Positions 14,826 to 64,000 of a DNA stretch of 64,000 bases are shown piece by piece (position 1 is the stretch's first letter; each line of letters starts with the position of its first letter). This DNA comes from Leucoraja ocellata. Its lineage: Eukaryota. The stretch covers positions 682,001 through 746,000 of the forward strand of contig JAWMAR010000533.1 in assembly GCA_036785375.1 (NCBI GenBank), given 5' to 3'. The notes beneath the pieces are model-generated. The model was given only the letters and a program-made list of their open reading frames with translations. It had not been told where the DNA came from and made no database searches. Made by a program: the position numbers and the translations under genes.

Positions 14826-14905
14826 TTTCAAAGCTCTGTGATTTCAAACCGTGTAACAGTTATTACTACATCACTGCCGAAGTCTTTGAGGGAGGAAGTG
14901 TGTTA

Positions 14906-15972
14906 TCATACCAACCAATTAATCTGTTTGTAGAAAACACAATGGTATTTTTTAACAATAACAGCAATTAAATTAAATTGCTCCCCTGGGCTTAAATTAA
15001 ATATTTGCAGTCTGTAGAAGCTTTCCTGCAAATAAAACAGGTTTTGCCAACGGCTTATTATAAAATTTCTGAACGGTCTTTCCCCCCACCATCCTGCTGT
15101 AGCCAGGATGTGGTTTATAGGCACGTCCATTCTTTTAGCCGTCGACGTGGATGCTGCCCTGGTGGAATGAAATTTGTACATGTTAGTTTTTATCCCAGCA
15201 GCTTTTAGCACCTGCTTGAGCCATCTCGAAATGGCTCGTCACCCGACCATAAGGTTTTTTATGACTGACCCACAAGGCTTTTCATCTCCCTCGAGTATTT
15301 TGGTTGTGTCTATGTAGTATAGTAGGGTCATGGCACATAACCGTGTTTCTGACGGGTAAGCCCGGAATTCCACGACTGGATTAGGTGTTCCTGGTCTGCT
15401 CTGTTTGATCATTCCCTGGATAACGACAGAGATCTGGTCTGGAACTGTGAGCATGCTGTCCAGTCGCAATAGGTGTAGTGACTGGACCCTCTGTGCAGAT
15501 ACAAGTGCCATCAACATGAGTGTTTTGAGCATAGATGGTTCCAGGTTGAGGGATCTGGATGGTGGCCATCCCCTGAGGTATGTCAGGACCACACTGACAT
15601 CCCATATATGGGTGTACCTTGGTCTAAGGGGTTAGAGTTGTAAATACCCTTCATTAGTTTGACCACCAGCTGGTGGGACCCCATGGCCTGTTGTCCTGGA
15701 GCTGGTTTTAAATAGACAGGCAGGGCAATTCTAGCTGTGTTGATGGCTCTGTAGCTGAGTCCTTCATAGTGGTGAAGGTTCACCAGGAATTCCAGTACGT
15801 TGGTAACTGTAGCGGTTGAGTAGGTGGTCCCTGTATCCAAGCAGTACTTCTCCCATTTTTTGATGCTGGACAAGTGTTGTTTTTTAGTGGATGTTCGGAG
15901 GGATGCTGACATGGTGTCGACGGTTTGTTGTGATATTCCCAGTCCCAGAAGTGGTTTGTGCAGAATATGCAA
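14906..15972 (-). pseudogene. DIRS tyrosine recombinase (three frameshifted pieces)
   Basis: ORF 15583..15972 (SLRTSTKKQH..KWEKYC, NTARIAL, LMKGIYNSNP), ORF 15239..15592 (LKTLMLMALVSAQRVQSL, catalytic R) and ORF 14906..15211 (FHSTRAAST HxxR motif, ILATAGW). Confidence 0.9.
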
Positions 15973-15990
15973 CCCAGGAGTTTGATTTTT

Positions 15991-16530
15991 TCATGGCACA
16001 GGTGGCTTGTGCCCGACACTGGGCATTAATAACTCTGGGTCACTGGGGAATACCATCGGAGTTTCAACAACCATGTCATGGAGTATTGGGAACCATGGCT
16101 GCGTAGGCCAGTCGGGTACTATCAAAATACCTGAAGCAGAGTCCATTTGTACTGTGCGTAGTCCCCGACTGATGAGGCAGAAGGGAGGAAACGCGTACAA
16201 GAAGAATTTCCCCAATCCAGCGCGAACGCATCTACCGCTGCTGCCTCAGGGTCTGGTTCCCAAGCGACATACATAGGTACCTGGTGATTTAGCCTTGATG
16301 CAAATAAATCGATATCTGGCGTGCCATATTGCTTGATAACTTTTGTGAAAATTTTTGGGGGTTTTTAACATCCATTCGATGTTGTCATTAAATTTACATG
16401 ACCTGGTGTCTGCCACTGTATTTAGCTTACCTGGCAGGTAAGTTACTGATAGCCAAATGTGTCTTTGGACACACCATTGCCAAATTGTGTTGACCAACTT
16501 GTCACATGATACCGATTTTATGCCGCCCAT
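15991..16530 (-). pseudogene. DIRS RNase H C-terminus plus N6-adenine-methyltransferase-like (MT) domain
   Basis: WQWCVQRHIWLSVTYLPGKLNTVAD (RNase H end), then PDIDLFASRLN at about 16288-16320 and YAFPPF...ILIVPDWPTQPWFP (ORF 15991..16215). These motifs are typical of the DIRS1 MT domain. Confidence 0.85.
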
Positions 16531-16689
16531 ATAGTTAATGTAGTATTATTTATTTATAACCGTACATGCAAGTGATGCATATTTACGCATATGCTTTTAA
16601 ACCATAAAAGTCACCCAACATCTCTAGATAATTAATGCCCAGTGTAAGTGGTAACGATGATTCTGGGTTAGTCCATCTACTACTTGTGC

Positions 16690-17670
16690 TGGATATAGAG
16701 TTAGTTGCTCCCCAGCCTTGAGCACTGGCATCTGTTTGGATAACTGACGTAGGGTTAGAGATGATAATAGGCTGAAACTATGTCAAACGTTTTTTTCCCA
16801 CCACTGTAGTTCTGATATTACTTCAGTGGGTAACTTCATGAAACGATCATAGTGACCTGTATGTCGTTTTTGGTACAAAGGTCCGAATTATGTAGCTGGA
16901 AATGCTGCTACCATTTTCCCAACTACTCTGTTACTTGTCGAGTAGTTGGTAGTTTGTTGACCATTAAATTGTTGCACGATTGTGCCAATTCAACTAATTT
17001 GTCTCTTGGCAATGTTACAGTCACGTAGACTGAATTAATTGTGAAGCCCAAGCAGTCCATGATAGTGGATGGCTTCAACTTAGATTTATCTGGATGTAAG
17101 ACAACCCCAGGGTTTCGAATAACTGTTTGGTAGCTGAACAGCTAACATGGTCAATTTCATGGTCTTGCCTACCATTTAGGATATCATCAAGATATGCCAT
17201 GACAATATGTTTTTATCTTCTGAATATTGCCAGAGCTGGTTTTAGTGTCTTGGTGACACTCTTGGCTGATGTGAACCCATTGGGTAACGCTTTAAACTGC
17301 TATAGCTGCCCCATCCAGGTAAATTTCAGATATCTGCGATGATCCTTGTGAATGGTACTAAATAGAAAACACCTTTAAGATAAATGCTTGCCATGAAGTA
17401 TCCTTTGGAATTTAGGTGTTTGGCAGTAACAACCGGTTCCATTTTGAAATGTATATACTTAACAAACATATTTAGTGAAGTTAAGTCAATGATGATGCGA
17501 CATCCACCATCTTTTTTGGGTTTAGTTAATATATTTGATACGAATTGCAAGGGTTCAGGTTTTCCCATGATACCCTTTGTAATTATTCTCACCAGTTCAG
17601 CTTGTCCCTCTTGTTTCTTTAATGGAGAGGGGAAAAATACCCTCTGGGGCGAATGTTGACCTGGTGGCAA
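16690..17670 (-). pseudogene. DIRS reverse transcriptase / RNase H N-terminal part (disrupted)
   Basis: ORF 17326..17670 contains FVSNILTKPKKDGGCRIIIDLTSLN...HFKME. YLDD reads on the minus strand at 17183-17194. RNase H motif IQTDASAQGWGA lies at about 16706-16742. Several frameshifts. Confidence 0.9.
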
Positions 17671-18570
17671 TTTTTTGAGTATGAATTGTATTTGTATTCA
17701 CTAATGCCATTAAGTATATACTGATCACTCGTGATAGACTCCCATGTGTTAGTATTACTCTATATACTGGTAGGAACCAGACCCACATCCTCCATGGTTA
17801 TGGGTATTCTTCTGTTTCCTGCCGGTCCAACGGATGTTGCACGTCGCCTGACGTAGCGGAGACGTGGGGGGTGGCACATTTTCCATGGGGTCCGCTCTGG
17901 GCCCTGGTCTAAAGAAGACTTTCGGTGATAGAATGCGGACCCCGAGCTTTCATCAGTCCGATATGGTAGACTTTGACTGATGGACGCGATGGGGTGCTGC
18001 TGCGTAGGAATTACTGTTTTTGGTTTGCTTGTCCCGGCCCTGCCCTCATGAGCTGAAAGTTTTGTAAACCTCTTGCATGTCCTTCATATGCTTTGTGAGG
18101 TTTTTGCCAAATAGCAGTGGGTCTGACTCAGTTGCTGGGGTATGCACAATCCTGCAATGTAGGATTTATGGCAGGTCTTATGACTTGTTTACGAAGGTTG
18201 TGGTCATCTCCGTATTTGTCCATGGAACGAGGAGAAATGTGATGGCTGTCGTCAGGCTTTTAACGCCTCCTGCACATGGGGTTTCCCTGTAGCTGTCCAC
18301 CACACCTAGCAGCTCTTCCTGTTCCTGCACTCCTTGCATACTCCCGAGATCTTCAGCCATTGCCCCTGTTCTTGACCAGCCCAGTCCTGGTCACCAAAGC
18401 TATCCTCTGGAAAGGAGGAAGCAATGGACAGTGCACAAGGCACTGTGGAGGGAGTGCCTGACCCCCTCTGCGAGAGCACCCCTCCTGGGGTGCACCTCGC
18501 TGGAGCTCCTGCTCCAAGAGCCGCTCCATGCGGCTCAGGCAGCTGCCTCTCCCCCGCCTGGGTGGAGAGA

Positions 18571-19160
18571 CGTCCCCGTCCGATAAGTCGGAGCCACCGG
18601 CCGGACGCCTCTTCCATGGCTTTACATCCAGACCCCTGCTCAGGCGCTAGCGGGCTCGGGTCGCCGCGGTGTCGGGGTATAGCGGACCGCCTGGTAAGCG
18701 GTCCTACCGCCTTGTTGCTGCCCCCGCGAGATGGAACGCTCCTCCGTGGAGTCGAGCGGGGTAGGTCTGTTCAGGCGGCTGTCTTTCCTCCCGTGCGGGT
18801 GGAAAGAAGTCCCGTCCGATAAGTCGGAGCCACCGGCTGGATGCCTCTTCCGTGGCGGTACTTCCAGCCCGTTGCTCAGGCGTAGCGGGGCTGGGCTCGG
18901 CACGGTGTCGGGATAGCGGAGCGCCGGGTAAGTGATCCTACCGCCTTGTTGCTGCCCCCCCCCCCCCCCAGATGGAACACTCCTCCGTGGAGTCGAGCGG
19001 GGACAGGTCTATTCTGTTGCTGCCGCCCCCCCCCCCCCCCCCCCCCCAGATGGAACGCTCCTCCGTGGAGTCGAGCGGGGACAGGTCTATTCTGTTGCTG
19101 CCCCCCCCCCAGATAGAACGCTCCTCCGTGGAGTCGAGCGGGGGACAGGTTTGTTGCAGA
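18571..19160. repeat. GC/CpG-rich tandem duplications in the DIRS 5' (gag-like) region
   Basis: A unit of about 240 bp is duplicated (starts near 18571 and 18809). The core CCCAGATGGAACGCTCCTCCGTGGAGTCGAGCGGG recurs about 4 times (near 18725, 18966, 19045, 19107), separated by poly-C of variable length. Confidence 0.85.
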
Positions 19161-19637
19161 GCCTTTCTTCTCTGCCGGACAGCAGAAGGCTCCCTGTGAA
19201 GGAAACCGACGTCAGCTTACCTGACGGTCTGTTCTTTCACCTCCATAGCGGGAGCACCTGACTCCCGCTGTGCCGCTGTTGCTCTGCTGGACGTTATGCC
19301 GCGCATGCGTGCTGAGCGGGTTCTTCACGGAATCACTCACGTGACTCCGAAGTATAATCACTGGTGTGCTTTCATGTTTATATGTCATCAAAATCTTTCA
19401 TTGATTCTCAGTTGCATCCAGGTAAATTGCAACTCCAAAGTTTTGCTGTTCAGCCCATCATTCATACATCGGCTCTTTGGAAGCATTATCCAGTTAGGAA
19501 CATCCTGTACTCTATTCCCAAAGTGCTGCAACATTTAATATTCCTGAATACGGTTCAAATGATATTGAAAAGTTGAGATACAAAGATCTGCAGATAATGG
19601 AATCTTGAGCAAAACAGAAAGTGATGGAGGTAGTAAG

Positions 19638-20352: not shown

Positions 20353-21096
20353 AATGGCTTTTCAGCGACTGTCTTCGACCTTCAAGCTCGAGGGCACTCG
20401 CCTGAAAAACCTCGAACTGGATCGACCGTCAGCAATGAAACTGCGAGNNNNNNNNNNNNNNNNNNNNNNNNNNNNNNNNNNNNNNNNNNNNNNNNNNNNN
20501 NNNNNNNNNNNNNNNNNNNNNNNNNNNNNNNNNNNNNNNNNNNNNNNNNNNNNNNNNNNNNNNNNNNNNNNNNNNNNNNNNNNNNNNNNNNNNNNNNNNN
20601 NNNNNNNNNNNNNNNNNNNNNNNNNNNNNNNNNNCAAAGGCGGGGGCCAGGGAAAGCGGGGGAGCGATGTCTGAAATTCACACCCACGATGAACAGGAAG
20701 GTAAAAGACGGCTGGCACAGTTACAGTAAGTCCTTTAGAGAGCGTGTGGGGGGGGGGTTAAATGCCCACTAAAGCTTTACCTTCGACTACCTTTGATTAC
20801 CTTTGATTACCTATGAATAACATGCCGACCTACCACTACCTACCTCGATTAAACCTACAAATAAAAAAATAGCGATTTTTTCCATGGCGAGCCTTTTTTC
20901 ACTCGCGGGCATTTTTCAACATGTTGAAAAATATACCGCAACCTAGCTGAGTCCTCGAGTACGCGGGGACTACTCTCAAGCATGAAGGAGAGTTACAAAG
21001 ACCTCCTAGGACCTCGAGTCGACCATGCTGCGAGTATGAGTCAAGGGCAAACTCTTCTAAACTCACCAATTAGGTCGTCGCAGTGGGACAGGCCCT
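20353..21096. mobile_element. Harbinger-type MITE (contains an N-gap, left TIR missing) inserted in a CR1 3' end
   Basis: Right TIR AGTGGGACAGGCCCT. The host CR1 sequence GCTAAATC-TAA|...|TAA-CTCTCTCTTG is split at a TAA duplication. Confidence 0.8.
20448..20634. other. Assembly gap (187 N)
   Basis: Run of N. Confidence 1.
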
Positions 21097-40268: not shown

Positions 40269-41423
40269 TTAGTATGTCTCGCCCCTGCGTTCCTTGGCAG
40301 CTACATTTAGTGCTTTTATAGCAGTGGGGTAAAAACTGTTTTTTAGTCTGTTCGTCCTTGTCCTTGTAGATCTGTACCGTCTGCCTGACGGCAACAGTTC
40401 AAACAGGGAGTGTCCGGGGTGGGAAATGTCCTTTATGATACTCTGGGATTTTTTGGTGCAGCGGGAACTGTGTAAGTCCTCCAAGGTAAGGAGAGGGCAG
40501 CCGACAATCCTCTGGGCGTTGTCAATGGCCCTCTGGAGCGCTTTCCTCTGAGCCGCTGTGCAGCTGGTGTACCACACGCATACACAGTATGTTAGTATGC
40601 TCTCAATGGAGCACCGATAAAAGGGCAGCAGCAGTCTCTGAGTGATGTTGTTCTTCCTGAGCACCCTCAGGAAGTGCAGTCTCTGCTGAACCTTTTTCAG
40701 CAGCGCAGTGGTGTTCACGCCCCACGTCAGGTCCTCCTCAATATGGATTCCCAGGAAGCGAAAATCCGCCACCCTCTCTACACAGTCCCCTCTGATAGTC
40801 AATGGTACCATGTCCGTTTTATTCTTCCTCAAGTCTATTATTACTTCCTTTGTCTTTAAGGTGTTGAGGAGCAGGTTATTTTCTTCACACCACACCGTCA
40901 GCTGCTCCACCTCATCCCGGTAGGCGTACTCGTCCCCCCCGGAGATGAGTCCCACCACCGTAGTGTCATCCGCAAATTTGACAATGGTGTTGCTGTGGTG
41001 GGCGGGGGTGCAGTCATGTGTGTAGATGGTGTAGAGCAGGGGGCTCAGTACGCAGCCCTGTGGAGAGCCGGTACTGAGGCTGAGGGCCGTGGATGTATGA
41101 TGGCCCACTCTGACTCTCTGGTTGCGACCCGGCAGGAAGCTATTTATCCACGTACAGTCGGAGTGTGGAAGTCCCAAGTCCCCCAGTTTGTCCACCAGTT
41201 TGTGGGGAAGGATGGTATTAAAAGCAGAGCTGTAGTCCACAAAGAGCATCCGCACGTAGCTCCCCCGCTGCTCCAGGTGAGACAGTGCAGCATGGAGAGC
41301 TGTGGCTACAGCGTCCTCTGTAGATCTATTTGCTCTGTACGCAAACTGGTGGGGGTCAAAGCTTCGGGGCAGAAGTGATGTGATATGACCCCGGACCAGT
41401 TTTTCAAAACACTTCATCACCAC
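40269..41423 (-). CDS. Rex1-type reverse transcriptase, uninterrupted 384-aa C-terminal part of ORF2
   Basis: The open frame covers the RT core (FADD) to the typical end [22 protein letters not shown]. The upstream part (41505..42077) is separated from it by frameshifts. Confidence 0.85.
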
Positions 41424-42077
41424 TGGTGTGAGTGCGACTGGCTGGTAGTCGTTGAGGCTGGAGATGTTGGTTTTTTTTGGGCAAGGGGACTATGGTGGAG
41501 GACTTCAGACAGGGTGGAACAGTGGACTGTGCCAGCGACTGGTTAAAACTCCAGCCAGCTGGTCTGCGCAGTCCTTCAACACGCGTCCAGAGACGCCGTC
41601 AGGTCCAGTAGCCTTCCTTGGATTGATGGCCCGCAGCGTGCGCCTCACCTCATGCTCCTCTATCTTGAGGGTTAGGCTGCTGTGGACCAAGTGCTGTGAT
41701 GTGGCTGTCTTGGGTGGCTCCACTTCAAAGCGAGCAAAGAAGTGGTTCAGCTCCTCTGCCAGCGAGGCGTCACCTTCAACAGCTCCAAGGTTGGTCTTAT
41801 AGTTGGTGAGATACTGGATCCCCTGCCACACCTGCCTGCTGTTATTACTGTCCAGGTGGTCCTCTATCTTCCTCCTGTAGTTTGATTTGGCCTCTCTGAT
41901 GCCTCTCTTCAGGTTAGCTCGGGCCGTGCTGTATAAAGCCCTATCGCCAGACCTAAAAGCGGTGTTCCTCTCTTTCAACAGCTGCTGGACATCCGGGTCA
42001 TCCAGGGTTGGGGTAGACCCGGATGCGTTTGTCCACTGTGACCGTGTCCATGCAGTTTTTAATGTAACACAGTACAC
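41424..42077 (-). pseudogene. Upstream frameshifted part of the same Rex1 ORF2
   Basis: RNTAFRSGD..YSTARANLKRGIREAK..., NPRKATGPDGVSGRVLKDCADQLAGV. A small deletion near 41545 and an A-run frameshift near 41475 break the frame. Confidence 0.85.
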
Positions 42078-42302
42078 TGTCTGTGAACACCTCCAGGTGA
42101 TATGATGAGCTACAAAGTAATATCAATGTTAGTAGCATAAGTTGGTGGGGGGGGGGGGGGGGGACAAGTAGGGAAGGTGGTGGCTAGGTAAAGAGGACAC
42201 CGAAGATCTTGGAGAAAACCCACACTGTTATGGAGAGAACGTACATCCTCCATATAGACAGTACCCTTAGTCAGGATCAAACCCGGATCTCTGGCACTGT
42301 AA

Positions 42303-44307: not shown

Positions 44308-44552
44308 AGGGCCTGTCCCAATTGAGCGTTATTTGCGTGTCATTTACGCGACATAATTTACGCGTCACGACGCACGACACGCGGGTCGTGGCGCGTGCAT
44401 GGCGTGCATTACGCGAGCATGGTGCGTGGTGAGACGTGGTGGATTAGGTAGTGACAAGCGGTAGCGCACGGCGCCCCAGGATTTTGGGATTCTCAAAACA
44501 CCCGCGCACCACCTGCGTGACATGCAAATGACGCCCAAGTGGGACAGGCCCT
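44308..44552. mobile_element. Harbinger-type MITE, CpG-rich
   Basis: AGGGCCTGTCCCAATTG...CAAGTGGGACAGGCCCT, with TAA on the left. It truncates a V-SINE fragment. Confidence 0.88.
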
Positions 44553-45227
44553 TGGTGGTCAGAGAAAGGAGATTGTGTCTAATTCATGCTCAATGGAGGT
44601 AAGTAATCAGCATTACAAGATTGTTCCGTTTTCATATACTGTTTATATACATATACTAATTTTTAATGATCATATACTGCAATCCAAACAAACTACTACT
44701 TTCTCTGATTCGTAATAATCTTAGCTTGATTTAACATTTTGCTTTGGATCGGTACATTGCATGAAGGAAGGACTTTGAGCCTCAGAATGTTTCGAGTGGA
44801 TAAGTAGAAGTACATGCAATAAAATATTAAATCCTGGTAGAGATGTATAAATTACTGTAGATGCTAAATTGTACACTAAATCCCCTGTACCTATAGGGAG
44901 GTAGATCAAGTGAGGAGTCCATGCTGATAATAGCGCCTGTCTCATTATAAAAGGAGTAGTGAGTGTTTAGGAATGATTTAAAAGAATGGTAACATAACTA
45001 GCTGGTTGTAACTGAGAATGCTGAGCAGGCTGGGGTATCTTTCTTGTGATCAGCTAATGAATGTCTTCATTGGAATATCCAGTAAAGAAACAGGGGAAAT
45101 GAAAAAGCGTTTGGAATATGGAATTTACTACTACATGGACTGGATGGGGAGGCATACATTTAATACATTTAAAGGGAAAGGGAAATAAATGATAAGGGAA
45201 AAATGAAGGTGAAAGATATTGAGTGCA

Positions 45228-47577: not shown

Positions 47578-47744
47578 CATTCCTCCAGAGATGCTGCCTG
47601 TCCTGATGAGTTACTACAGCATTTTGTATCTATCTGCATAAAAATATGTTAGGTTGCTGACTTTCTTTAATTTAATTTTTTTATGTTGGATTATAAATAT
47701 TGATGTATAGTTCCCACAAATCATTGTACAAGATCAGGGACACC

Positions 47745-48660
47745 ACTGACAATGCCACCGCGGTTGGATGAATTATAGTTGACGATGAGTCAGATTTAAT
47801 GAGGGGGATCGATCGACTGACCAAATGGTGCCAGAACAACAACCTAGCTCTCAACGTCAGTAAAACCAAGGAAATGATGGTTGACTTTGGAAGAGGAAGG
47901 TCGAGGATCTACAAACCTGTATTCATCAATGGGACTGTGGTGGAGAGTGGAAAAACTTCAAATTCCTGGGCATGCATAGCTCTCAAGATCTGTCCTGAAC
48001 CCAGCACATTGATGCAATCAAACAGAAAGTCCATCAATGCTCGGCTTCCTAACTAGATTGAGGAGATCCGGTATTACAAATACGGAATTACGAATACGGT
48101 ATTATGAATAGAGTCTGAAGAAGGGTCTCAACCCGAAACGCTACCCATTCCTTATATCCGGAGGTGCTGCCTGTCCCTCTGAGTTACTCCAGCATTTTGT
48201 GTCTATCTTCAGTTTAAACCAGCAACTGTATTTCCTACCTACACATTACAAATACTCTCTTGAACTTCTACGGGTGCACAGTACAGAACATATTGACAGG
48301 TTCCATCACAGCCTGGTTCGGCTACTCGAATGACCAAGGATGAAGAAGATTGCAAAAAGTGGTGGACACTGCGCAGTTCATTGTGGGTACTGACCTCCCC
48401 GCCATCGCAAACATCTACACGAGTCCCTGCCTCACGAAATGTAGTCAGCATCATCAGAGACCCACACCACCCTGGCCACACTCTCTGTTACCTCCTGCCA
48501 ACACGAAGAAGGCATAAGAGCCTGAAAACTGTAACGTCCAGGTTCAAGAGCAGCTTCTTCCCTACAACCAGAGGGCTATTAAACAATACAACGTCTAAAT
48601 TTGCTCCATAGACCTGGGAGTATTGTTTTTTGTATTTGTACTATTATTTTTGTGTTTTGT
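47745..48660 (+). mobile_element. Degenerate Rex1-type LINE fragment interrupted by a Penelope-derived insert
   Basis: LTKWCQNNNLALNVSKTKEMMVDF (47799..48056) and IIRDPHHPGHTL..LLPTRRR..SRFKSSFFP (48330..48611). Confidence 0.85.
48112..48244 (+). mobile_element. Penelope-derived repeat with hammerhead-like motif, inserted in Rex1
   Basis: AGT CTGAAGA A GGGTCTCAACCC GAAA CGCT ACC...TTCCTACCTACACA, flanked by the direct repeat ATTACAAATAC (48073-48083, 48245-48255). Confidence 0.78.
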
Positions 48661-48679
48661 TTTACACAGACACACACAC

Positions 48680-49482
48680 ATATAATTAAAAGTCTCATCT
48701 TGACCACTTCCTGTTTGCACTGTGCTTTGACTTTAGAAAAAACGCTACCACATTTGGCTGTGATTTTTTGGCCATCTTACTCAGAGTTCTCCTCCGCTGC
48801 GCTGGCCCCGAGGATTTTTCCCATCGATGAAAAGTAAAAGACTTATTAGTGTTTGAAACATCTTGAGATTCTCTCTCCTGTCAATCACCGCCATGAAGGC
48901 CACGCACCTTCTGGTGGGAGGGGGAGGGACTATAAAACCCGGAACTGTGGGAGTGGCTCAGTCTGTCTGCAAGATGGTGAGGGAGAGGTCACAACTCTCT
49001 GTCTGAGCTGGCAAACTACAGAACACTGTGAGTATGCAATGTATTTGAATAAATGATTTGTTAGCCCTTAATGACTTGTTAGCCCTTAGTGAAAATGTAA
49101 TCAGCTGATTGGCTTGAGCCTGCCCTGTACTTGAAAGTGCAATGGCAATGGAAATGAAGTGAAAATGCAATCAGCTGTTTGGCTTGGCCTGCCCTGTGCT
49201 TGAAACTGCAATGGCAATGAAAGTGAAATGAAAATGCAATGAGCTATTCGGCCTGCCCTGTGCTTGAAACTGAAATGCTGTAGGAAATGAAATGAAATGA
49301 GTTGTTTGGCCTGACTGAAACCACTAATTTCGGCCCACAAGGTCCCTATTAGCCGTGAATTCAGTCCCTTTTGCCCAAAATTCCCATAGGAGGAGCATTT
49401 TGGCCCAAAAGGCCCGTGCCAGGCCAGGACAAGTCCAGAAAAAGTGCCTTTCACTGAGATTTCACTCAGATTTTTTTTTAAA
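48680..49482 (+). mobile_element. Non-autonomous repeat (Helitron/Helentron-like, uncertain) with internal tandem repeats of about 70 bp
   Basis: Abrupt compositional junction after the Rex1 3' UTR. Three to four copies of ATCAGCTG.TTGGC...GCCTGCCCTGT(A/G)CTTGAAA.TGCAATGGCAATG..AAATG at 49098-49320. No TIR or TSD recognised. Confidence 0.55.
48898..48983 (+). promoter_or_regulatory. Candidate RNA polymerase II core promoter inside the repeat
   Basis: GC-box-like GGGAGGGGGAGGG, TATAAAA at 48931-48937, ETS-like CCGGAA, Inr-like TCAGTC with A at 48960 (29 nt after the first T of TATA), and YY1-like CAAGATGG at 48970-48977. Confidence 0.5.
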
Positions 49483-49489
49483 GAGTGGT

Positions 49490-52289
49490 CATTTGATCTA
49501 TTCTTGTTTCTCATCTAGTTCCTAATAAATGTTAGCATTTTGTATCCTGCTGACGACCTCAGCTGTCTTGCCTATAATTCCCTGTGAGGGGTGAATTTGC
49601 AGTGGTTAGAAGGAGACTAAAGGCAGCCCTGTAACTGGTAGGTGGAAATAAACTTGGAGCAGGAAGGGTCCAACATTTCCGTGAAGGGTGCAGATAGACA
49701 ATCTCTCCCTACAAGAAAAATACACAAGGTTAAAAAAAAATAAACTTGTTTTTCTCCAGCCTTTCACTCATCCCTATATGTTTACATGAAGGTGTTAGTG
49801 GAAGTTATTTTTGTTTGGGGTAGAAAAGGGTGGGAAACCAATGGGTTAATCTGTTGCTCCATTTTATTTATCGCTGTGTTAAAATTTGCACAACTCTTTT
49901 ATATAAATTAAAATTTCTATCACTTAAGTTTAGTTAGAGGGATTTACTTCACGCAGCAAGACCGAACATTTTTAGGGCATGTATTTTATCAACCATTTGC
50001 TCTCAAAAACATAATTATGTAATATCTGAGGATGCTACAGGGAACAGTAGCTCACAAAATGGATCAGATGCATTGGAAAAGACTGAATACAAGGTGCAGG
50101 GTGAAGGATAAAGAGGAAATAATAGGGAGCTAAAAATAAAAGCTGGTTTAAAAAGAGAGCAGAGGTAGTGAGAGGCATATTCAAACATAAGCTTCAATCA
50201 ATTCACCTAATAAGATGAATAAATAATCTAATTTTATACAGATAGAGAACATAAAGAATTACAGGGGGGGGGGGGGAATTAACATTGGGACCACAATAAG
50301 GTGTAACAATTAAACTTGAATATCTGCACCTGACTCAATATTAACTAAATATGACCATAAGCAGTAATTGCATGGAATTACTACATGGAATCTCTTTTCA
50401 AAAATAAGTGGGTCTTCCGAAGTGCCAAAGCACAATAAAAGCTGAGTACCACATCAAATGACAGTGGAGGCCAATTCACTGGATGTTTTCAAGATAGTTA
50501 GATTTAGTTCTTAATGCTGAATCAAGGGATATGGTGAAAAAGCTGGAACGGGGTACTGATTTTGGATGTTCAGCCATGACCATATTGAATAGTGATACTG
50601 GCTCAAAAGGCTGAATGGCCTACTCCTGCACCTATTTTCTATGTTTCTATATTTCCATGAATAGGCTCTATGGCCCACAATGTTTGTGCTGAACATAATG
50701 CCAAGTTGCACTGATCTCATCTGCCTGATCCATATGATATGATCCATATCCCTCCATTTCCTCCACTTCCATGTGCCTTTCTAGAAGCCTCTTAAACGCC
50801 ACTATCATATTTGCCTCCACCACCACCTCTGGCAGCTTAGCAACCCTAATATGTACTGAAATTTCACTACTCCCATTTTTCCCCTTTTCATATTTAGCCA
50901 CAGAATAGTCTTAGTTTAATATATATTGATTCATCCACATTCTTGGTTTCCAAATTGACCTTTATGATTGTAACATAATAAGTGAAAATGTTAATTAATT
51001 TAATTCCCTTCAAAGTCATCATCATAATAATATTCTTAATTGATGGTATTATTGTGTTTTGGCACTGCTTGCTTTTGAAAATAAATCCACAGACAGCAAT
51101 TCCATTCAACCTGTGCTAAAAGTTATGTGTTTAGAGTTAAGTGTAAATATTCAGTAATATTTAGTTGTGACACCTAATTGTGGTCCCTATGTTGATTTTT
51201 ATTCTGTTGTTCGTCTTGTTAGATGAATGTATTGATTGAATCTGATGTTTGAATATGCATTTCACTAACTATGCTCTCTTTTTAAACCAGCTTTTAATGT
51301 AGGTTTGCTATTATCTATATTTGGTCTTTATCTTTCCCCTGTGCCTTGTATCTCACTGTCTTTTCAACTGCATCTAGTCCTGCATGTGAGCTACTGTTCC
51401 CTGTAGAATACTTGGATAATACTTAATTATGTTTATTGACAGTAAATGGGTGATTAAATATATACCTTAAAGATGTCCTCTCTTGTGGTTCTGAGTAAAT
51501 CTATTTAACTAACGTTAAGTCACAGAAAGTTTAATTTATGTAAAACAGTGGTGCAAATTTGACACAGCAATAGAATGAAGCAGAAGATTCATCCATTGGT
51601 TTCCTGCCCCTTTCCACCTTTCATCAAAAATAACTTTCACTAAATCTTCCATGAAGAGGTATAGGGATTAGAGAAAGCCTAACGGGAGACATATTTCTTT
51701 TTTGACATTATTATATTTTACTTGCAAAGGCAGGAATGCCAATCTGAGCTCTACAAGGAAACGTGGGACCCCAAGTGGCGGAGTAACTCAGTGGCTCAGA
51801 CAGCATTTCTGGAGAACATGGCAAGGTGACGTTTGGTTTCGGGAGAAGGGTCCTGAGATGATGTTTGACCCGCTGAGTTACTCCAACTTGTTGTATCTTG
51901 CTCCAGAGCTGCTGCCTGACCCACTGAGTTACTCTAGCAATTTGTGTCCTTTTATGTAAACCAGTCCCTTGTCCCGAGTTTACTTCCCATTACCAGGTAC
52001 AGGGTTGTCTTCAATCTCCTTCTAACCAATGCAAATGCATCCCTCGCAGCGAAATATACAACAAATTGTTAGATATAGCTCTTAGGACCAACGGAATTAA
52101 GGGATATGGGAATAAAGCAGGAACGAGGTACTGATTTTGGATGATCAGCCATGATCATATTGACTGGCTCAAAGGGCCGAATGGTCTACTCCTGCACCTG
52201 TTTTCTATGTTTCTATGTTTCTAATATCAGCAGGATAAAGAACGCAACAAATAATTAAGACGGAAATGAGGAACAGAATAGATTAAATG
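49490..52289. repeat. Long diverged inverted repeat (arms about 49490-50458 and 51030-52289), interrupted by younger TE insertions
   Basis: Perfect complementary anchors 50035-50056/51385-51406 (22 nt), 50137-50161/51272-51296 (25 nt) and 49603-49616/52015-52028 (14 nt), with collinear similarity between them. Confidence 0.92.
50461..50840. mobile_element. Two CR1 3' fragments inserted in the spacer of the long inverted repeat
   Basis: Plus copy 50461-50650 ends TTTTCTATGTTTCTA. Minus copy at about 50668-50840 (LPEVVVEA..AFKRLLERHM). Confidence 0.8.
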
Positions 52290-54271
52290 CCCAATCAAGC
52301 TGCTCCTTAATTCAAAGAGATGGAAATATAGTTATCAGGCATTTGGAAAATAATAATGTCCTTGAAAATAGTCAGTGATTGACAAAGGAGGGTGGATGAT
52401 AAACAATGGTTGGCTTCGAAGGATATTCTCACCAAAAAAACCATTGAGAAGTAAAAACTCACTAAGAAGGATGATCCATCCTTGCCCAACTGAAGATTGT
52501 GTCAAACTGAAAAGAAAAAGAAAAGGCATATGAAGTTGTGGGTTAATTGAAAGGTTAGAGGATTGGATAAAATGTACAAACCAGCTGAGGTTAACAAAAT
52601 CTCACAAAGAGAAAATCAAATTTGAAAATAATTTATGAAAATATATAAAAACACAAAAGAATTTACACAGGTGCTCAATAATGTCGAAGAGACCAAAAAT
52701 AAATATTAGTCTCTTAGGGGATGAGTCTCGAGCATCGATAATGGGAAAATAAGGAAATGGCAAAGAATTCGAACAAGGTTTTGGTTTTGCATTCCCAGAT
52801 GGGGAAGACACCAAAAGCCTCTCAATAACATTTGAAAACCAGAAGATGAAAAGATAAAACAAAAATTCTGGGCAGACAATACAATACTGTTTATTGTCAT
52901 TTGACCCTCAAATGAAGTTCAAACAAAATTTGGTTTCTGCAGTCATACATAAGAAAAAAAACCCAAGACACACAATTAACACAAACATCCATCACAGTGA
53001 ATCTCCTCCTCACTGTAATGGAAGACAAAGTCATTGTCTCTCCTCTGTTTTCCATTCTCCTCCCAACTAATGAGGATAAATGCTGACAAGTCTGCCAGAT
53101 ATGGTAACCTGCATCAGAGAACCTTAAAACAGTGGCAGCAGAGAGAGTGCTTGCATTGCTTTGGATTGCAAATTTCCCCACTCACCCAGCAGATTGGAAA
53201 ATTGCAAATATAATGCTCCCACTCAATAAAGCTGGAAGACAGAATGTAGGAAACTTTGGCCAGATAAACCATGCTCTAACATTGAGAAAACATCCCGATT
53301 CATTATTGAAGAAGTAGTGAAAAGACATTTAAAAAGTCAAAGCATGATCAAGCTGATCAAGGGAGGGGAAGGAGCATAAGCGAGCAGCTGGGAATGGTGA
53401 ATTATAACTGGGAAATGGAAAAATACTGGTTGGACCCCATTAGACAGTCAGCGACATGAAGTGAAGGGTGAAGATGGGGTTGCAGGAAATTGGGTAAAAC
53501 TTTGCTTCTGAAAATAGAGGATTGCCATCTGCAGTGTTCAGGCTGGCAGGTCAATGACAGGTAGTAATGATCTTATCTCTGGGATGGCAAAGGGAAGGTG
53601 AGAATGGTGTGGTGTGCAGGGCAAAGGATCAGTACACTTTAAATTGTTCCTCGTGTGAAGATGAGTGGTAGGATGGGAGGGGTGGGGGGGAAGAACATGG
53701 GTTAGGGTAGAGTTAATGTAAGAATGGCTGCTTGGTGGTCAGGGTGCACCCAGATGACCAAAGGACCTGCTTCTGTAGATTTATAACAAGAGCCTCATGT
53801 ATATTTGTGGCTAATACAGACATTGTCTAGCAGAGCAAATGTTCCACAATTTATTGGATAAGAAGTAAATGTTTGATAAACATTCACATAACTGCTGTTT
53901 GTCTCTTTTAACGTGTTATTTTAATTTATTGTTCTTTAAAGTTGTATTCCTGTCTTAATATGTGTTCCATTAGCTCAATATTAATCAGTAGAAAGATGCA
54001 GCATCAGAATGTTAATTCTGTGTAGGAAGGAACTGCAGATGGTGGTTTGAACTGAAGGTAGTCACAAAGAGCTAGAGTAACTCAGCAGGTCAGGCAGCAT
54101 CTCTGGAGAAAAGGAATAGGTGAGCACTTGTTCACATATCAGAAATGTCAACAGTGGTATGAGCTGTAAAGAACGGCCAGATCTCTTTCCAAGCAGATCC
54201 CAATCATGGAAAACAATGGAACCATTTATTGAGAAAGTGATAACAAGACACTTGGAAAATGATTGATTGAT

Positions 54272-54522: not shown

Positions 54523-56234
54523 GGTACCAGTAATATGATTCATTGAAGATAAATTATATTTAACAAATCAGTCAGAATATTTTGAGATTGTCACTAGCAG
54601 AAAAGTATGGGTGATAGTACGGGTATCAGTGGTTCACAAAAAAGCTGGAGAAACTCAGCGGGTGCAGCAGCATCTATGGAGCAAAGGAAATAGGCAACGT
54701 TTCGGGGTATCAGGGGTTATTGGGAGGAGGCAGGAGAATGGGATAAGGAGGGAGAGATAGATCAGCCATGATAGAATGGCAGAGTAGACTGGATGGGCCT
54801 AATGACCTAAATTCTGCTCCTATCACTTAGGAACTTATGAACTTATGAAAAATTATTAATTCATTGATCTGGTTTATTTTAGGTCTGAAGGCCTTCAAGA
54901 ATATGCCAACAGAGACTATTCAGCAAAAGTAGAGCACATGATTTTGAAGGTCACGTACTACATGGTTTGAAAGTTGGTTAAAAGGGAACTGTGATGCAAG
55001 CAGTTAGATGTCTGTAATATGGGGTGCTGCAGTGCCGGGGTCCAAGCCACCTGCAAACTGTATCAGTCCTTTGGATGAGTGTGTCGTGCAATATATGAAA
55101 ATCAAATCAAATACTGCAGATGCTGAAAATCTAAAATGGGAGTAATATACCCAAGTTTGTGTAGAAAGGAACTGCAGATGCTGCTTTATATCGAAGATAG
55201 ACACAAAGTGCTGGCTAATATAACCAAGTTGCTTGTTATATAACAGCTGGCTGGCAGCATGAGCATTGAGGAGGGTTCACGGAGTCCTCAGGGGGATAGA
55301 GATCAGTTGTGGCAAGAACACGGCAGATGGAATAAATTGTGGAAAAAATGTTCTATCATCTACTGTCTTGGTTAAATAAGGAAGGAAGAGTACTGTTGTT
55401 TTAAATGATGAGAGGTTGGAAACAGATGGTATTCAGAATGCCTTGCCTTTCCCTGGATATATGTTGTGCTTAAGGCAAGTAATAAGGTAATTTTTAGATT
55501 CAAGTAACTGCAGAGGCTGGAATCTGGTGCTTAACACAAAGTGCTGCAGGAATTCAGTGGGTCTGGGGAAGGAATGGATAGGTGACTTTTCGGGTAGTCA
55601 TCTTACTTCATATTGATTGTAGAAGGAGGGAGAAAGTTGGAAAAGATAGGTAGGGTTGGGACAAAGCCTGGCAAGTGATAGATGGATGCAGGTGAGGGGA
55701 AATGTTTGGCAGATGGGTTGAGTAAGTGTCAAATGCTAGGGTTACAATAAACAATAGACAATTGGTGCAGGAGTAGGTCATTCGGCCCTTGACTCTGCTA
55801 TCTTTAAGAGCTCTATCTAACTCTCTCTTGAGAGTTAGTTGAAATGAAGAGATAAATTGAGAAATGGAGGAGTGAAATATAAAGCCAGTGGGATGGGCTA
55901 TACAGTGTACAGTGGCCTTTATTGTGTGATGATTTGTGTGCTAAACAAGAGATGTTTTGTTCCAATTATATAGGGCTCTGGTAAGACTGCATCCAGCATA
56001 TTGTATACAGATCTAGGGAAGGACATGCTTGCAATAAAGAGGATACAGCCATGTTTCCTCAGATTAATTCCTGAGATTGTGGCCTTGCTATTTTTTGAGG
56101 ATAAATTATAACCTGTACTGTCTTGCTATACTCGACTGCATTTAGCACTGAGATGAAATAATTTTCTTCATCAACAGGGCCATGCATCTTTGAAATTCAC
56201 TGTCTAAAAGGGCTGTGGAGCCAACTCAGTCATT

Positions 56235-56961
56235 ATATAGGCAGACCACAGGAGGCAGTCATACCCCCATCCATATAAACGGGACTGAGGTGGAGCGCGT
56301 CTCCAGCTATAAATTCCTCAGAGTACATATCTCGGAGGATTTGTCCTGGTCCCTCAACACCTCCAAGCTGATCAAAAAGGCACAGCAGCGCCTTTACTTC
56401 CTGAGGAGGCTCAAGAAAGCCCACCTGTCCCCCCGGATCCTGACCAACTTTTACCGCTGTACCATAGAGAGTATCCTGACCACCTGCTTCACGGTATGGT
56501 ACAGCAGCTGCACTGCTGCGGACAGGAAGGCACTGCAACGGGTGGTGAAAACCACGCAGCACATCATCGGTGCCCCGCTCCCTGCCATGGATGCCCTCCA
56601 CCGAAAACGGTGTCTGAGACGGGCTGGGAAGATCATCAAAGACCCCTCACACCCCAACCATGGACTGTTTGCCCTCCTCCCATCAGGGAGGCGGTACAGG
56701 AGCCTCAGGTCACGTACTAGTAGGATGAGGAACAGCTTCTACAACAATACAATCACATTGCTGAACTCGGAGTCCCGCCGATAGATTTCTCCGGTCCCTC
56801 CATCCCCATTGTTTAATTATTCTGTATTTTATGATTATTCTGTATCTTCTCTCTTTCTATTTTTTTTATTTCTTTATGCACAACTACTACGGACTGACGC
56901 AAAACTGCATTTCGTTGTACTCATACTTGTATTTGTGCGATGACATTAAAGTTGAATTGAA
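56235..56961 (+). mobile_element. Rex1-type LINE 3' fragment with 3' UTR
   Basis: ORF 56215..56784 ([50 protein letters not shown]). Tail ATTTCGTTGTAC...TGACATTAAA GTTGAATTGAA. Confidence 0.9.
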
Positions 56962-58526: not shown

Positions 58527-59410
58527 CTTAGGCGATTTTTGAGGCGTCTGCNNNNNNNNNNNNNNNNNNNNNNNNNNNNNNNNNNNNNNNNNNNNNNNNN
58601 NNNNNNNNNNNNNNNNNNNNNNNNNNNNNNNNNNNNNNNNNNNNNNNNNNNNNNNNNNNNNNNNNNNNNNNNNNNNNNNNNNNNNNNNNNNNNNNNNNNN
58701 NNNNNNNNNNNNNNNNNNNNNNNNNNNNNNNNNNNNNNNNNNNNNNNCAGGACAAGCGGGGGGAGCGCTGTATGAAATTCACACGGTGCAAAACCAAGGT
58801 GATACAGTCTCACACCGCGATGAACAGGAAGGTTGGCACTGTAATTAAGACGGCTAAAGCACAGTGTAGGGTAAGTCCTTTAAAAGAGGGAAGGGAGGGG
58901 GAGAAGGAGGGAGAAGGAGGGAGAATGAGGGAGAAGGAGGGAGAAGGAGTGGAGTCAACTGTTAAGAAGCCAGACAACATTTAAGAAGCCAGAGATACAC
59001 AGCTGTGAAATTCGGCAGACATTAACATTACCGGTCGGTTATCCTTGGTTCTGAAAACTACTGCTTATGTTTTTTTTTATCCCCAATGAGCCAATGATAT
59101 TCACAATGATATCCTTGTGACAGCTCCTAACATTTGTCAGCACCGGCTCCAACCTACCAGAACCTAAGAGAACCTTCGACCTCCTGGCAACCCATTAGGA
59201 CCTCCTTGCGACCCACCTTAGGCTCGAGAATTCTCGCTACTCTCCATGGTGGCTTAATTCTCGGTGACCATAATGAGGCCGTGACTAGTTCCAGAATGTG
59301 GGAACTCCTCACGACCATGAAGGTGACTCCCCGGCAACCACCCACGAACATGTGGCGACTGCAAAGTCTTATGCAGACACCTAAAAAGTCGCCTAAGTGG
59401 GACAGGCCCA
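58527..59410. mobile_element. Harbinger-type MITE containing an N-gap
   Basis: Left CTTAGGCGATTTTTGAGGCGTCTGC is inverted against right GCAGACACCTAAAAAGTCGCCTAAG-TGGGACAGGCCC. Confidence 0.85.
58552..58747. other. Assembly gap (196 N)
   Basis: Run of N. Confidence 1.
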
Positions 59411-61034
59411 TGATGGAGCCTCAGCATTACATCCTTGTTTTTGTATACAAGCCTTCGCGACATAAATGCTCGCATTGTGTTTGATTTCTTTACTATCGAT
59501 TCGACTTGGAGATTAACTTATTTGGGAATCCTGCACCAGCACTCCCAAGTCCCATATGACAATAAAACACTCTTGACTCTTACATTCAGGGGCGATGCAC
59601 AACCTGACATGCTTTGCCTCAATCCATTGTGAATGGCTGTCTCCCAATGTCAGGAAAGTTTCTCCCTACGGTTCATATAAATGTGCTGGAATGGTTTCCT
59701 GCATCACTTCCACATTTGGGAGGAGTATTCAGAAGTAGTTTGAATGAAGAGTTGTTTAGACACTGCTGACCCTTCACTTGAAGGAATAGATAGCTACGAG
59801 GTGCAGTTGCATGTTAATATGCACAAATGCCACAGTAGAGCTTCTTCCCTTACTCTGCCTTATATTTCCTTGTGACAGATCATAACGTTTGTGATGTAGA
59901 CGATTTATATTCTCATCCAAACATGTATCTGCAAACGTACAGCCACAGAAAATATATTCACATATTTGTTTTAGTACTTGGGCATCAATCACATCCTTTC
60001 CACTGATGTTGTATGAAATTCTGACGGCTGTGCGGTGAATATTTCATTTTCTGTGTTTCTTTTGGTGTTTTCATAATGGAAATACTGCAGTATTCTGAAT
60101 GGATTTTCAACACTCAATTTTGTAATCATGTTAGGAGAACAGAACGGTACATTATTGAGACTGGCATCAGAGGATTGGGCCGAAGACTGACCAACAGAGA
60201 TTTAAGGCCTGTGTCCAACATGAATGGTTAATGTGACAAAGATTGAATGAGAATTGTGATTCCAAACATGGTTGCCAATGCACACTTCCACCTCCGAATA
60301 TAATTCTTCTTATGCTTCTTTAGTGGGCATATAACCATATAACCATATAACAATTACAGCACGTAAACAGGCCATCTCGGCCCTTCTAGTCCGTGCCGAA
60401 CACTTATTCTCCCCTAGTCCCATCTACCTGCACTCAGACCAAAACCCTCCATTCCTTTCCCGTCCAAATAACTATTCAATTTTTTAACTTTTTAATTTTT
60501 TTTTGATGAAGGGGAATGACTTTTCCCTCCCGATTGTCCACAATTTGCTCTCACAGTCTTGGCTCCATGCCTAGAGGCACCACAAGAAAACCTCTTGGCA
60601 CTATTGCTTACATAGTGGACTGGCTGAGACGCCTCCTGCCATGATCACACACCTTCTTTCCTCATGGTTTGTTCTTCAACAGTTATTGCATTAGCATCAG
60701 GAGTAAAGCTGAGCAGCCAAGCCTGCCTGCAGCAAAAAGCATCTCCTGATCGTGTTTCACTCTGTACAACTCTTTCTCCGTTTGAGCCTTTACACATAAG
60801 GTACCTGATTAGCCTGCAGAAATATAGCTTGACATTCAACCTTGTGCAATGGATGCCTTTAACAGGTCCACATGCTAATCTAAAAGTTTAACTAGATGCG
60901 GTTACAAATTGTTCATGTTAAACACATCCTTCCAGTGCACCTTTGAGCTATTCTTTCCACAACAGAGCTGGTTGTGCCTGACATCGGCCAATATAATCTG
61001 TAATATCACTTCACCTTAATAAGATTGTACATAT

Positions 61035-61531: not shown

Positions 61532-61985
61532 TCAAGTTCAAGTTCAAGTTCAAGTAAGTTTATTCTCACGTGTCCCTGTATAGGACAATGGAATTCTTGC
61601 TTTGCTTAAGCACACAGAAAATAGATCAATATACCATGATATAAATATATACACACATGAATAAATAAACTGATAAAGTGCAAATAGCAGAAAGTGGTTA
61701 TTAATAATCAGAGTTTTGGCCGAGCCAGGTTTAATAGCCTGATGGCTGTGGGGAAGTAGCTATTCCTGAACCTGGTTGTTGCAATCTTCAGGCTCCTGTA
61801 CCTTCTACCTGAAGATAGCAGGGAGATGAGTGTGTGACCAGGATGGTGTGGGTCTTTGATGATACTGCCAGCCTTTTTGAGGCAGCGACTGCGATAAATC
61901 CCCTCAATGGAAGGAAGGTCAGAGCCGATGATGGACTGGGCAGTGTTTATTACTTTTTGTAGTCTTTTCCTCTTCAGGGCGCTCA
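61532..61985 (-). mobile_element. Rex1-type LINE 3' end
   Basis: RLQKVINTAQSIIG..IIKDPHHPGHTLISLLSSGRRYRS..RFRNSYFP, followed by a (TTGAAC)n tail at about 61532-61553. Confidence 0.88.
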
Positions 61986-64000
61986 ACTGAACATTCTTCA
62001 GATTAGTCATCAACTATAAGGTTAAGCAAGAATCTCTTTTACATCTTTCTGTTATCAGCTACTCTCTTACCCTGAGAACCTACTTGGCCAACATCATCTG
62101 GCTTGGCTTCCTGGATTATTCTTCCTTTGTACAAGTATTTTATTACTTTGATGGGTGATCCCTCTTACATTGGCAGCTGTTCTTCTTACGTGCCTCAGTT
62201 TTCAAATTCAGCACTTAACTCTTGTTGTTGGGGTTGCCACCACTTTTGATGCAGTTGTATGACAATATACCTCAACAAGAACGGCAAGAACAATAGCGCT
62301 GCTGCCTCACAGTGCCAGAGACTTGGGTTCGATCCTGACCTCGGCTGCTGTCTGTGCAGAGTTTGTACATTCTCCAAGAGAGCTTAATTAAACTAATTCT
62401 GCAATCTTTCTATTGCCATGTCAAGTAAAACTTTTATAGAGCTGGGTGTGCTGCTGATGTTACATGTGCAACTGGCTCTGCTTCCATTTATAAGTATTCG
62501 TGCTTGTATTCTCATGAATGGGTGCCATGTTCCCTTACACTTAACATTGTGGAAAGTATCCCCATCTATTCAATATAAGAACTGAGGGGTTCGTAGCTGG
62601 ATTGCTGGAGCTTTGAGGAGCAGTGTTAACTCTGCCTCCCTAATTAATGGTGTTTGAGTGTTCTCCCATCTTGTCTGAACATCATGAAGACTTGATCAAC
62701 GAGCAATATCCTGTGACTGTAAATCATGTCGAAGTTCCATGAAATAATATCTTCCGTACTTATAGACCTCAGAATAAAATTAAATAAGCATTATAATTCT
62801 GGTTGTGTTGCTACTTTACATTTATAACTGTGGTCATTTTGCTAATTGTTGTATTTGTTAATGTTGATACAGTTACTTATTATTGCCTGTGTCTTTAATC
62901 CATGCAGATGTCCTGCTAAATAATGCCAACTTCAACCCACAGGTTCAGAGTCCAATCTCTGATGAATGAAATGTAACCAGTCCCGAGTTGCCATTCTTAT
63001 ACCTACTGTGTAGGGAACCAAAATGATGAATAGAACAAAGCATAAAAAATATATATAATTAAAAATATTGCCAGACCTGGTCACAGATGACCTGGTTCTT
63101 TTCTTCTGGCAAATTACGAGCAAGTGATTTTCTGCAGCAAACTATCACCCACCAAAGCACTTTGATGAGTAACAAGGAACTGAATTTCAATTTGAAAGGT
63201 ACACTGAAGAATAGATGTTCTGTCACGTAATCCAGATCTGCCATGTAACCTTCTGATGGATGAAGTGTCTCAATTTTTTCCTATGTATTACTATTAATTA
63301 ATTCAGAAAGGTGCTGTTTGTAAATGAATTTATTAAAACTAATACAAGGAACTAACTCAAGAATTCCCTTATTGGATTCTGGAAACATGTGCCCCTTTGT
63401 AAGGAATATAAATCACCACAAGCTTTTCTTTTAATTCACAGCTTATTTGAGTGAGCGTAACCTTTTGAGAGGTCAGTTTATTTCAAAGAATGTTTACTTT
63501 TAGGCAGCATATTTGTGCATAAAGTTGGCTTATCGTCCTTGAATCGGCTTTCAATTTCCTTGGTTGGCAAATCCCATTGCTTTGATTATTTTATTACCTT
63601 CAGCACAGCTTATTATTAATCTTACTGTGAAATACCAAGGCTTATTTTTTTCTTTGAGGAATATATTATAGCTTCAAAAAGCATTTGCAGCTGTCAGTTT
63701 TATTATTTTTCTTTAAAACATAGTAACGTCAGGAAAATTATTTTAAAGAATGTTGACGCTCACAACATTATAAAATTATTTAAGCAAGAAACAACTTTTT
63801 GTTTTCTGTTCTGCCCGAAAATTTGTTCACAACTTTACGAAGAGACTTTGAACTTGCACAATTGGAAAAAAACAATCACATGTTAACAAGGGGACCAGTC
63901 AATTTTGCTTTCAATTATATTTTCACAAAAGGCCATAACTTGAGGAGTGAAGATGTTAATCCTGGCTAAATTGGACCAGTCAGGACTTCAAAATGGGGTT

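Follow-up and report, generated by a model that had tools for sequence, protein, structure and literature searches.

Foldback (long-TIR) non-autonomous DNA transposons, such as FB and Galileo of Drosophila, have a short non-coding centre framed by long inverted arms. Pairs of dispersed repeats in opposite orientation, such as inverted Alu copies, are ADAR substrates and form double-stranded RNA if read through within an intron. The hpRNA endo-siRNA loci of Drosophila are long imperfect inverted repeats, which a local duplication could generate and which fold into a long stem; they are described as transcribed, diced, complementary to target genes and evolutionarily young (PMC10317233), while long miRNA hairpins are reported to be lacking in vertebrates (PMC12553114). 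In fold-back inverted duplications, a sequence and its inverted copy lie side by side, separated by a single-copy spacer; those described in PMC3907307 are recent and large, with deletions or translocations.

Within the window, by which we mean the whole 64,000-base stretch of DNA that was analysed, the inverted repeat at 49483-52296 is genuine, and it shares features with each of these systems. Like an inverted Alu pair, it holds two opposite copies, about 80% alike, within 2 kb, but its arms are not high-copy and the window yielded no host gene. The long inverted arms and short non-coding centre are those of an FB- or Galileo-type foldback, but dispersed copies are absent at 80% likeness and in the window, the arms lack tandem sub-repeats of their own, and there is no transposase remnant. 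As in fold-back duplications, an inverted copy stands beside the original around a single-copy spacer; here, however, the copies are 1 kb long, interstitial, fixed and 21% diverged, and the spacer edge has no detectable short inverted repeat. Unlike the hpRNAs described in PMC10317233, the stem is old and broken by insertions. The reading of the locus that we judge best, with about even confidence, is a local inverted duplication of ancient date that is at present in neutral decay. A literature search outside subscription papers and repeat databases found no published description of the locus or element.

Structure of the Palindrome

The arms, the spacer and the surrounding repeats are as follows, with the evidence for each in brackets.

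48680..49482, no strand assigned: multi-copy repeat that abuts and masks the left arm's outer end (read depth; left boundary by eye)
49483..50438, +: left arm (alignment; single spanning contig per species, background depth)
50035..50056, +, partner 51385-51406: 22-nt perfect block (alignment; length within chance)
50137..50161, +, partner 51272-51296: 25-nt perfect block (alignment; length within chance)
50462..50655, +: LINE 3' tail, CR1-like, in the spacer (several ~80% copies in the window; depth 1e6-7e6)
50660..50840, start and end approximate, -: another LINE 3' tail within the spacer (depth ~1.7-2e5; matches the 4149 tail in translation, E=0.007)
50841..51048, together with 50439-50461, no strand assigned: rest of the original spacer, ~231 bp (background depth; no internal symmetry)
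51049..51771, -: right arm, inner part (blastn, alignment, read depth)
51772..51968, no strand assigned: hairpin-shaped multi-copy repeat, Penelope-like, in the right arm (many window copies; internal inverted repeat; depth 2e5-2e6 in DNA runs)
51969..52059, -: right arm, middle part (81% to 49573-49657 by blastn)
52060..52226, +: LINE 3' tail, CR1-like, in the right arm (multi-copy by blastn and depth; alignment)
52227..52296, -: right arm, outer part (74.6% to 49483-49553, E=1e-5, by blastn)
52297..53330, +: right flank, probably decayed LINE ORF2 debris adjoining the right arm's outer end (motifs, a weak lead)

An earlier note on this DNA had read the arms as inverted copies of about 1 kb lying under younger insertions, and alignment supports it. 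With the insertions at 51772-51968 and 52060-52226 excised from the right arm, local alignment of 49483-50438 with 52296-51049 gives 677 identical columns out of 856 (79.1%) and a score of 763, against 31+-3 in 30 shuffles. The inverted similarity was also recovered by a self-repeat search of the sequence, and blastn finds the core, 49666-50222 against 51771-51207, at 74.8% identity including gaps (E=2e-97). In the local alignment, the stretch 50010-50222 is slightly more alike at 82-83%. The outer ends reach a few bases farther than they had been placed, to 49483 and 52296. The alignment also contains the 22- and 25-nt perfect blocks at the positions given for them in the note; at the measured identity their lengths are within chance, with P(max>=25)=0.23 and P(25 and 22)=0.07 in 20,000 shuffles of mismatch positions.

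Subtracting the two inserted elements leaves an original spacer of ~231 bp, close to the loop of about 200 bp that had been claimed. Within it there is no palindromy beyond chance, and the arms do not extend inward into it. A search for a short inverted repeat at the spacer edge gave nothing above chance, at a boundary that is old and carries an insertion. In the right arm, ~18 bp of arm sequence are missing where the tail at 52060-52226 inserted. From their general appearance, we take the inserted repeats to be of the CR1 and Penelope kinds, and the DNA to be that of a cartilaginous fish.

Both outer ends are abutted by other repeats. On the left, depth reaches 18,000-72,000 over 49300-49581 in three of three DNA runs, where mapping began at 49300, and the multi-copy repeat at 48680-49482 includes a tandem array at 49088-49313, with units of ~69 bp. 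On the right, 52297-53330 carries what we presume to be LINE ORF2 motifs; its nearest family is RVT_1 at a score of 0.88, which is a weak lead, and five other searches gave no match to confirm a LINE. The palindrome does not continue outward, as the flanks do not match each other. Because other repeats abut both ends and there is no outward match, the original length and any target-site duplication are unreadable.

The right flank, and possibly the left, differs in the most distant of three related species mapped (organisms B, C and F). In organism F, 48 letters of the left-arm contig ahead of 49477 stay unaligned, which suggests that its left flank differs, perhaps for want of the abutting repeat. 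The multi-copy repeat at 52870-53066 is missing from the spanning contig of organism F, which also lacks 52549-52607; the former was therefore inserted after the split from F, or lost there.

Copy Number in Related Species

DNA runs of organisms B, C and F, and a poly(A) RNA run of organism B, were mapped at 80% likeness onto 49300-53500; these are 4 of 24 sequencing runs listed by a run search, which gave 20 matching runs under seven organism labels, none of them RNA, a lack that is not evidence. Depth over the 12 arm and spacer bins is 16-59 in all three DNA runs, and that over seven non-repeat flank bins is 16-64, whereas repeat bins in the same runs reach 1e4-7e6; depth here is not a copy number, and the contrast between arms and repeats is the evidence. 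Both arms are present in all three species, B, C and F, and in each of them every main piece of an arm is spanned by a single long contig. With a single main contig per arm at background depth in three species, the arms are therefore not a young common repeat. The possibility that they are two independent copies of a common dispersed repeat is thus ruled out for a young, high-copy family.

A repeat family as old as the arms probably escapes this test. Such a family would likely be missed because the right flank, itself probably LINE-derived, is also at background depth, and even the two arms share just 79% identity, below the 80% mapping floor. This bears on a second reading, in which the palindrome is fossil mobile DNA, either a non-autonomous foldback (long-TIR) element or an ancient low-copy repeat inserted twice in opposite orientations; a transposase acting in trans would have moved it, and decay would have followed. 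We regard this as possible, at a rather low probability. Its shape, ~1-kb inverted arms around a ~230-bp centre, is that of a foldback, copies much below 80% likeness would be invisible to depth, and it lies in a repeat-dense window, where self-hits cover 15,225 of the 64,000 bases. TTAA also occurs within ~10 bases of both outer ends and recalls TTAA-target elements, a weak sign in AT-rich DNA. Against these points, the 12 arm and spacer bins show no excess depth or contig pile in the three runs, and there is neither a readable target-site duplication nor an outward match between flanks. Searches of the arms with Pfam and against proteins found no transposase remnant, although a non-autonomous element need not carry one. 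Self-search found no further arm copy within the 64-kb window, as had been claimed. Exact matches to the 22- and 25-nt blocks were absent from metagenome contigs, as were matches to the 22-nt block from viral contigs, collections in which fish DNA is not expected.

Age and Rate of Change

The arms stand 0.245 substitutions per site apart, and 0.066 separates the window from organism F, which makes the duplication at least ~4 times older than the split from F, given steady rates and no conversion. The positions at which contigs of B and F enter the spacer tails, the right-arm tail and the hairpin-shaped repeat are those of the window (C and F have no contig across 51972-52046), and the insertions therefore predate the species splits. 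The palindrome is older than the insertions in it, as the earlier note had proposed.

We compared change in the arms with change in the right flank from contig pieces. Organism B differs at 30/2033 positions in the arms and 28/1204 in the flank (p=0.10), organism C at 43/1970 and 31/1202 (p=0.47), and organism F, the farthest, at 106/1670 (6.3%) and 53/905 (5.9%; p=0.67), the three comparisons sharing the window's own branch. The contigs extend ~30 bases into repeats at their ends, those of the right arm in B and C take in spacer, and the counts leave out a 198-base piece of B (5 differences) and a spacer piece of F (17/270). Among the 40 of 462 rows listed for organism B, the arms have 25/1840 differences and the flank 13/1042 (p=0.87). 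In organism F, 38 bp are also deleted from the right arm, and the left-arm contig shows 29 gap letters. In none of the three species are the arms slower than the flank. Because the arms change at the rate of the surrounding DNA, the palindrome is most likely a fossil duplication.

Origin and Persistence

Two inverted copies flanking a single-copy spacer is the architecture of a fold-back duplication. We propose that a non-coding stretch of ~1 kb or more gave rise to an inverted copy beside itself, leaving the ~230-bp single-copy spacer, most likely through a fold-back or template switch during replication or break repair, and that the duplication was then presumably fixed by drift. The arms have diverged to ~0.25 substitutions per site, and would have done so independently. 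Four retroelement fragments would have inserted later, before the sampled species split, as is seen for the three whose junctions are reached by contigs. The palindrome would thus be left with no detectable present-day role. Of the three origins offered earlier, the local inverted duplication fits best, the foldback element is neither shown nor excluded, and the hairpin locus mostly fails.

The survival of a long, close-spaced palindrome had been called notable, but yeast data suggest that it requires no special explanation at the present divergence. As reported in PMC10164571, a spacer of 100-200 bp lowers the instability of inverted repeats 20- to 300-fold in yeast, and ~75% homology abolishes instability in double-stranded DNA, although divergent repeats may still pair in long single-stranded regions. 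By analogy with yeast, divergence may have ended the tendency of the arms to pair or recombine.

Strand Bias of the Mismatches

If each strand were folded on itself, transition mismatches between the arms would give 56 G:U pairs on the + strand and 33 on the - strand (p=0.019). The excess has p=0.017-0.089 across seven alignment settings and stands at 41:16 in the blast core (p=0.001); methods for strand bias are treated in PMC1391917. Window-wide mutation bias does not explain the 56:33 ratio, because strand bias is absent from the window's repeats, of which 140 overlapping inverted pairs give G:U counts of 906:932. Purine-purine mismatches also outnumber pyrimidine-pyrimidine mismatches, by 57:33, a bias equal in strength to that of the G:U pairs. 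At 42-49 kb, DNA outside repeats carries an excess of G on the + strand (912:806, p=0.011), in the same direction, which LINE debris could also cause.

Taken together, the purine-purine excess and the local skew in G favour strand-biased mutation over pairing. An excess of A>G and C>T on one strand of transcribed DNA is described as a neutral process, which yields G:U pairs, while the mammalian coding-strand G>T bias in the same source is opposite to the excess of G:A over C:T here (PMC2839347). On the reading of a neutral duplication, the bias would reflect a local strand-asymmetric mutation regime, or chance. As a fossil, the palindrome is of little import, yet it is a built-in gauge of local strand-biased mutation; its mismatches record such mutation because the arms begin with zero strand skew.

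A G:U excess would also be expected of a long + strand hairpin RNA, an intronic ADAR substrate or endo-siRNA precursor that is or was functional, in which weak selection keeps the stem paired, tolerates G:U and steers changes to unpaired sites. We think this unlikely. The + strand duplex energy is the lower in five of five segments, a measure that is not independent of the G:U count, and the inner palindrome forms the predicted fold (z=-5.2), which is true of inverted repeats in general. In organism B, the partner positions 49596 and 52035 have both changed, from T:A to C:G, a double change with a chance of ~0.06-0.07 and the single one among the 21 aligned arm differences listed. The earlier note had named G:U bias and compensatory change as marks to look for in the arms; the G:U bias and the one double change are weak signs of them, but the equally strong purine-purine excess counts against selection for pairing, because wobble tolerance does not predict it.

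The distribution of recent changes is similarly faint as a hint of pairing. Of the 25 arm differences listed for organism B, 4 fall in unaligned columns and 6 are not polarisable, leaving 15 usable; among these, 8 are at already mismatched columns, where 21% would be expected (p=0.006 under equal rates), a signal that fades to p=0.05-0.16 with uneven site rates (gamma shape 2-1). The p-values for the double change and for these 8 of 15 changes are only suggestive, because the tests were chosen after seeing the data. The right arm of the supposed stem is also broken by two insertions, and the arms, as noted above, change no more slowly than the flank. We rejected ADAR hyper-editing as a source of the G:U pairs, since the G of these pairs shows no neighbour preference of the ADAR type. 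A more specific form of the hairpin reading, a kilobase-stem vertebrate hairpin RNA that arose by local inverted duplication and was long kept loosely paired on the + strand despite its insertions, is in our estimate improbable. If a hairpin reading were true, the locus would be a source of endo-siRNA or an ADAR substrate in cartilaginous fishes, and an old long-hairpin RNA in a vertebrate, of a class mostly described from flies.

Some of the same observations, among them the double change and the 8 of 15 changes at mismatched columns, would fit a neutral duplication with occasional arm-to-arm copying, by gene conversion or template switching, which could produce both the perfect blocks and the double change. 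Three recent changes, among those listed, restore an arm-arm match, and the slightly raised identity at 50010-50222 would agree with such copying. Conversion at 79% identity is, however, expected to be rare, block lengths are within chance and the double change stands alone among the listed differences; we consider this reading very improbable.

Coding, RNA-Family and Transcription Searches

The arms had been described as having no recognisable ORF, and this agrees with our searches. Pfam gives nothing below E=0.07 in 12 arm frames, and one left-arm frame of the 12 had no match among 1.84 billion proteins. A coding remnant was considered from exon-like splice motifs seen by eye at ~49600-49640 and 50041-50164, and was set aside as there is no codon periodicity and there are no matches. 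Rfam finds nothing at gathering score in the window, with a best E=0.3 in the palindrome region; a hammerhead or other Rfam RNA at the palindrome was rejected on this basis, and no miRNA family match was found there. The lack of an Rfam match is also a point against a hairpin RNA.

In the RNA run of organism B, a single oligo-dT (poly(A)) library of which 5% was read, with the tissue not given, depth is 0 in 19 of 19 non-repeat bins. With one such library read to this extent, the result weighs only against a polyadenylated transcript that is abundant there, and the arms of hpRNAs can show poor RNA-seq coverage (PMC10317233). For a functional hairpin, then, perfect blocks within chance, change at the flank's rate and the absence of poly(A) reads weigh against three weak hints of pairing.

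A host gene was also sought across the window. Pfam on 403 of 403 stop-free frames (at least 45 aa, mostly outside self-repeats, so that shorter exons would escape) placed only two LINE frames above curated cut-offs, and a host gene was rejected. A candidate glutamate-receptor exon at 59777-60043 (-) has a weak match to SBP_bac_3 (E=0.003), below the cut-off, and was put down to chance; in the PDB it matches two bacterial proteins only (E=0.025) and no glutamate receptor.

Other Features of the Window

Two assembly gaps, at ~20450-20640 and ~58550-58745 (383 N in total), are both distant from the palindrome. Broken frames at ~14900-19200 (-), accompanied by GC-rich tandem units at 18535-19155, presumably belong to a DIRS-type element, as they resemble pieces of a reverse transcriptase and a tyrosine recombinase; these pieces match nothing in Pfam at E<=0.01. 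A short MITE-like element with apparent terminal inverted repeats was seen by eye at ~44309-44553, with partial matches near 59345-59416. At 40272-42122 (-) lies a LINE with a fairly intact reverse transcriptase frame of 406 aa (RVT_1, E=1.5e-28), plus ALKBH8_N, and with another frame upstream of it (41505-42122); LINE 3' fragments like it lie at 47740-48600, 56194-56784 and 61708-62013.
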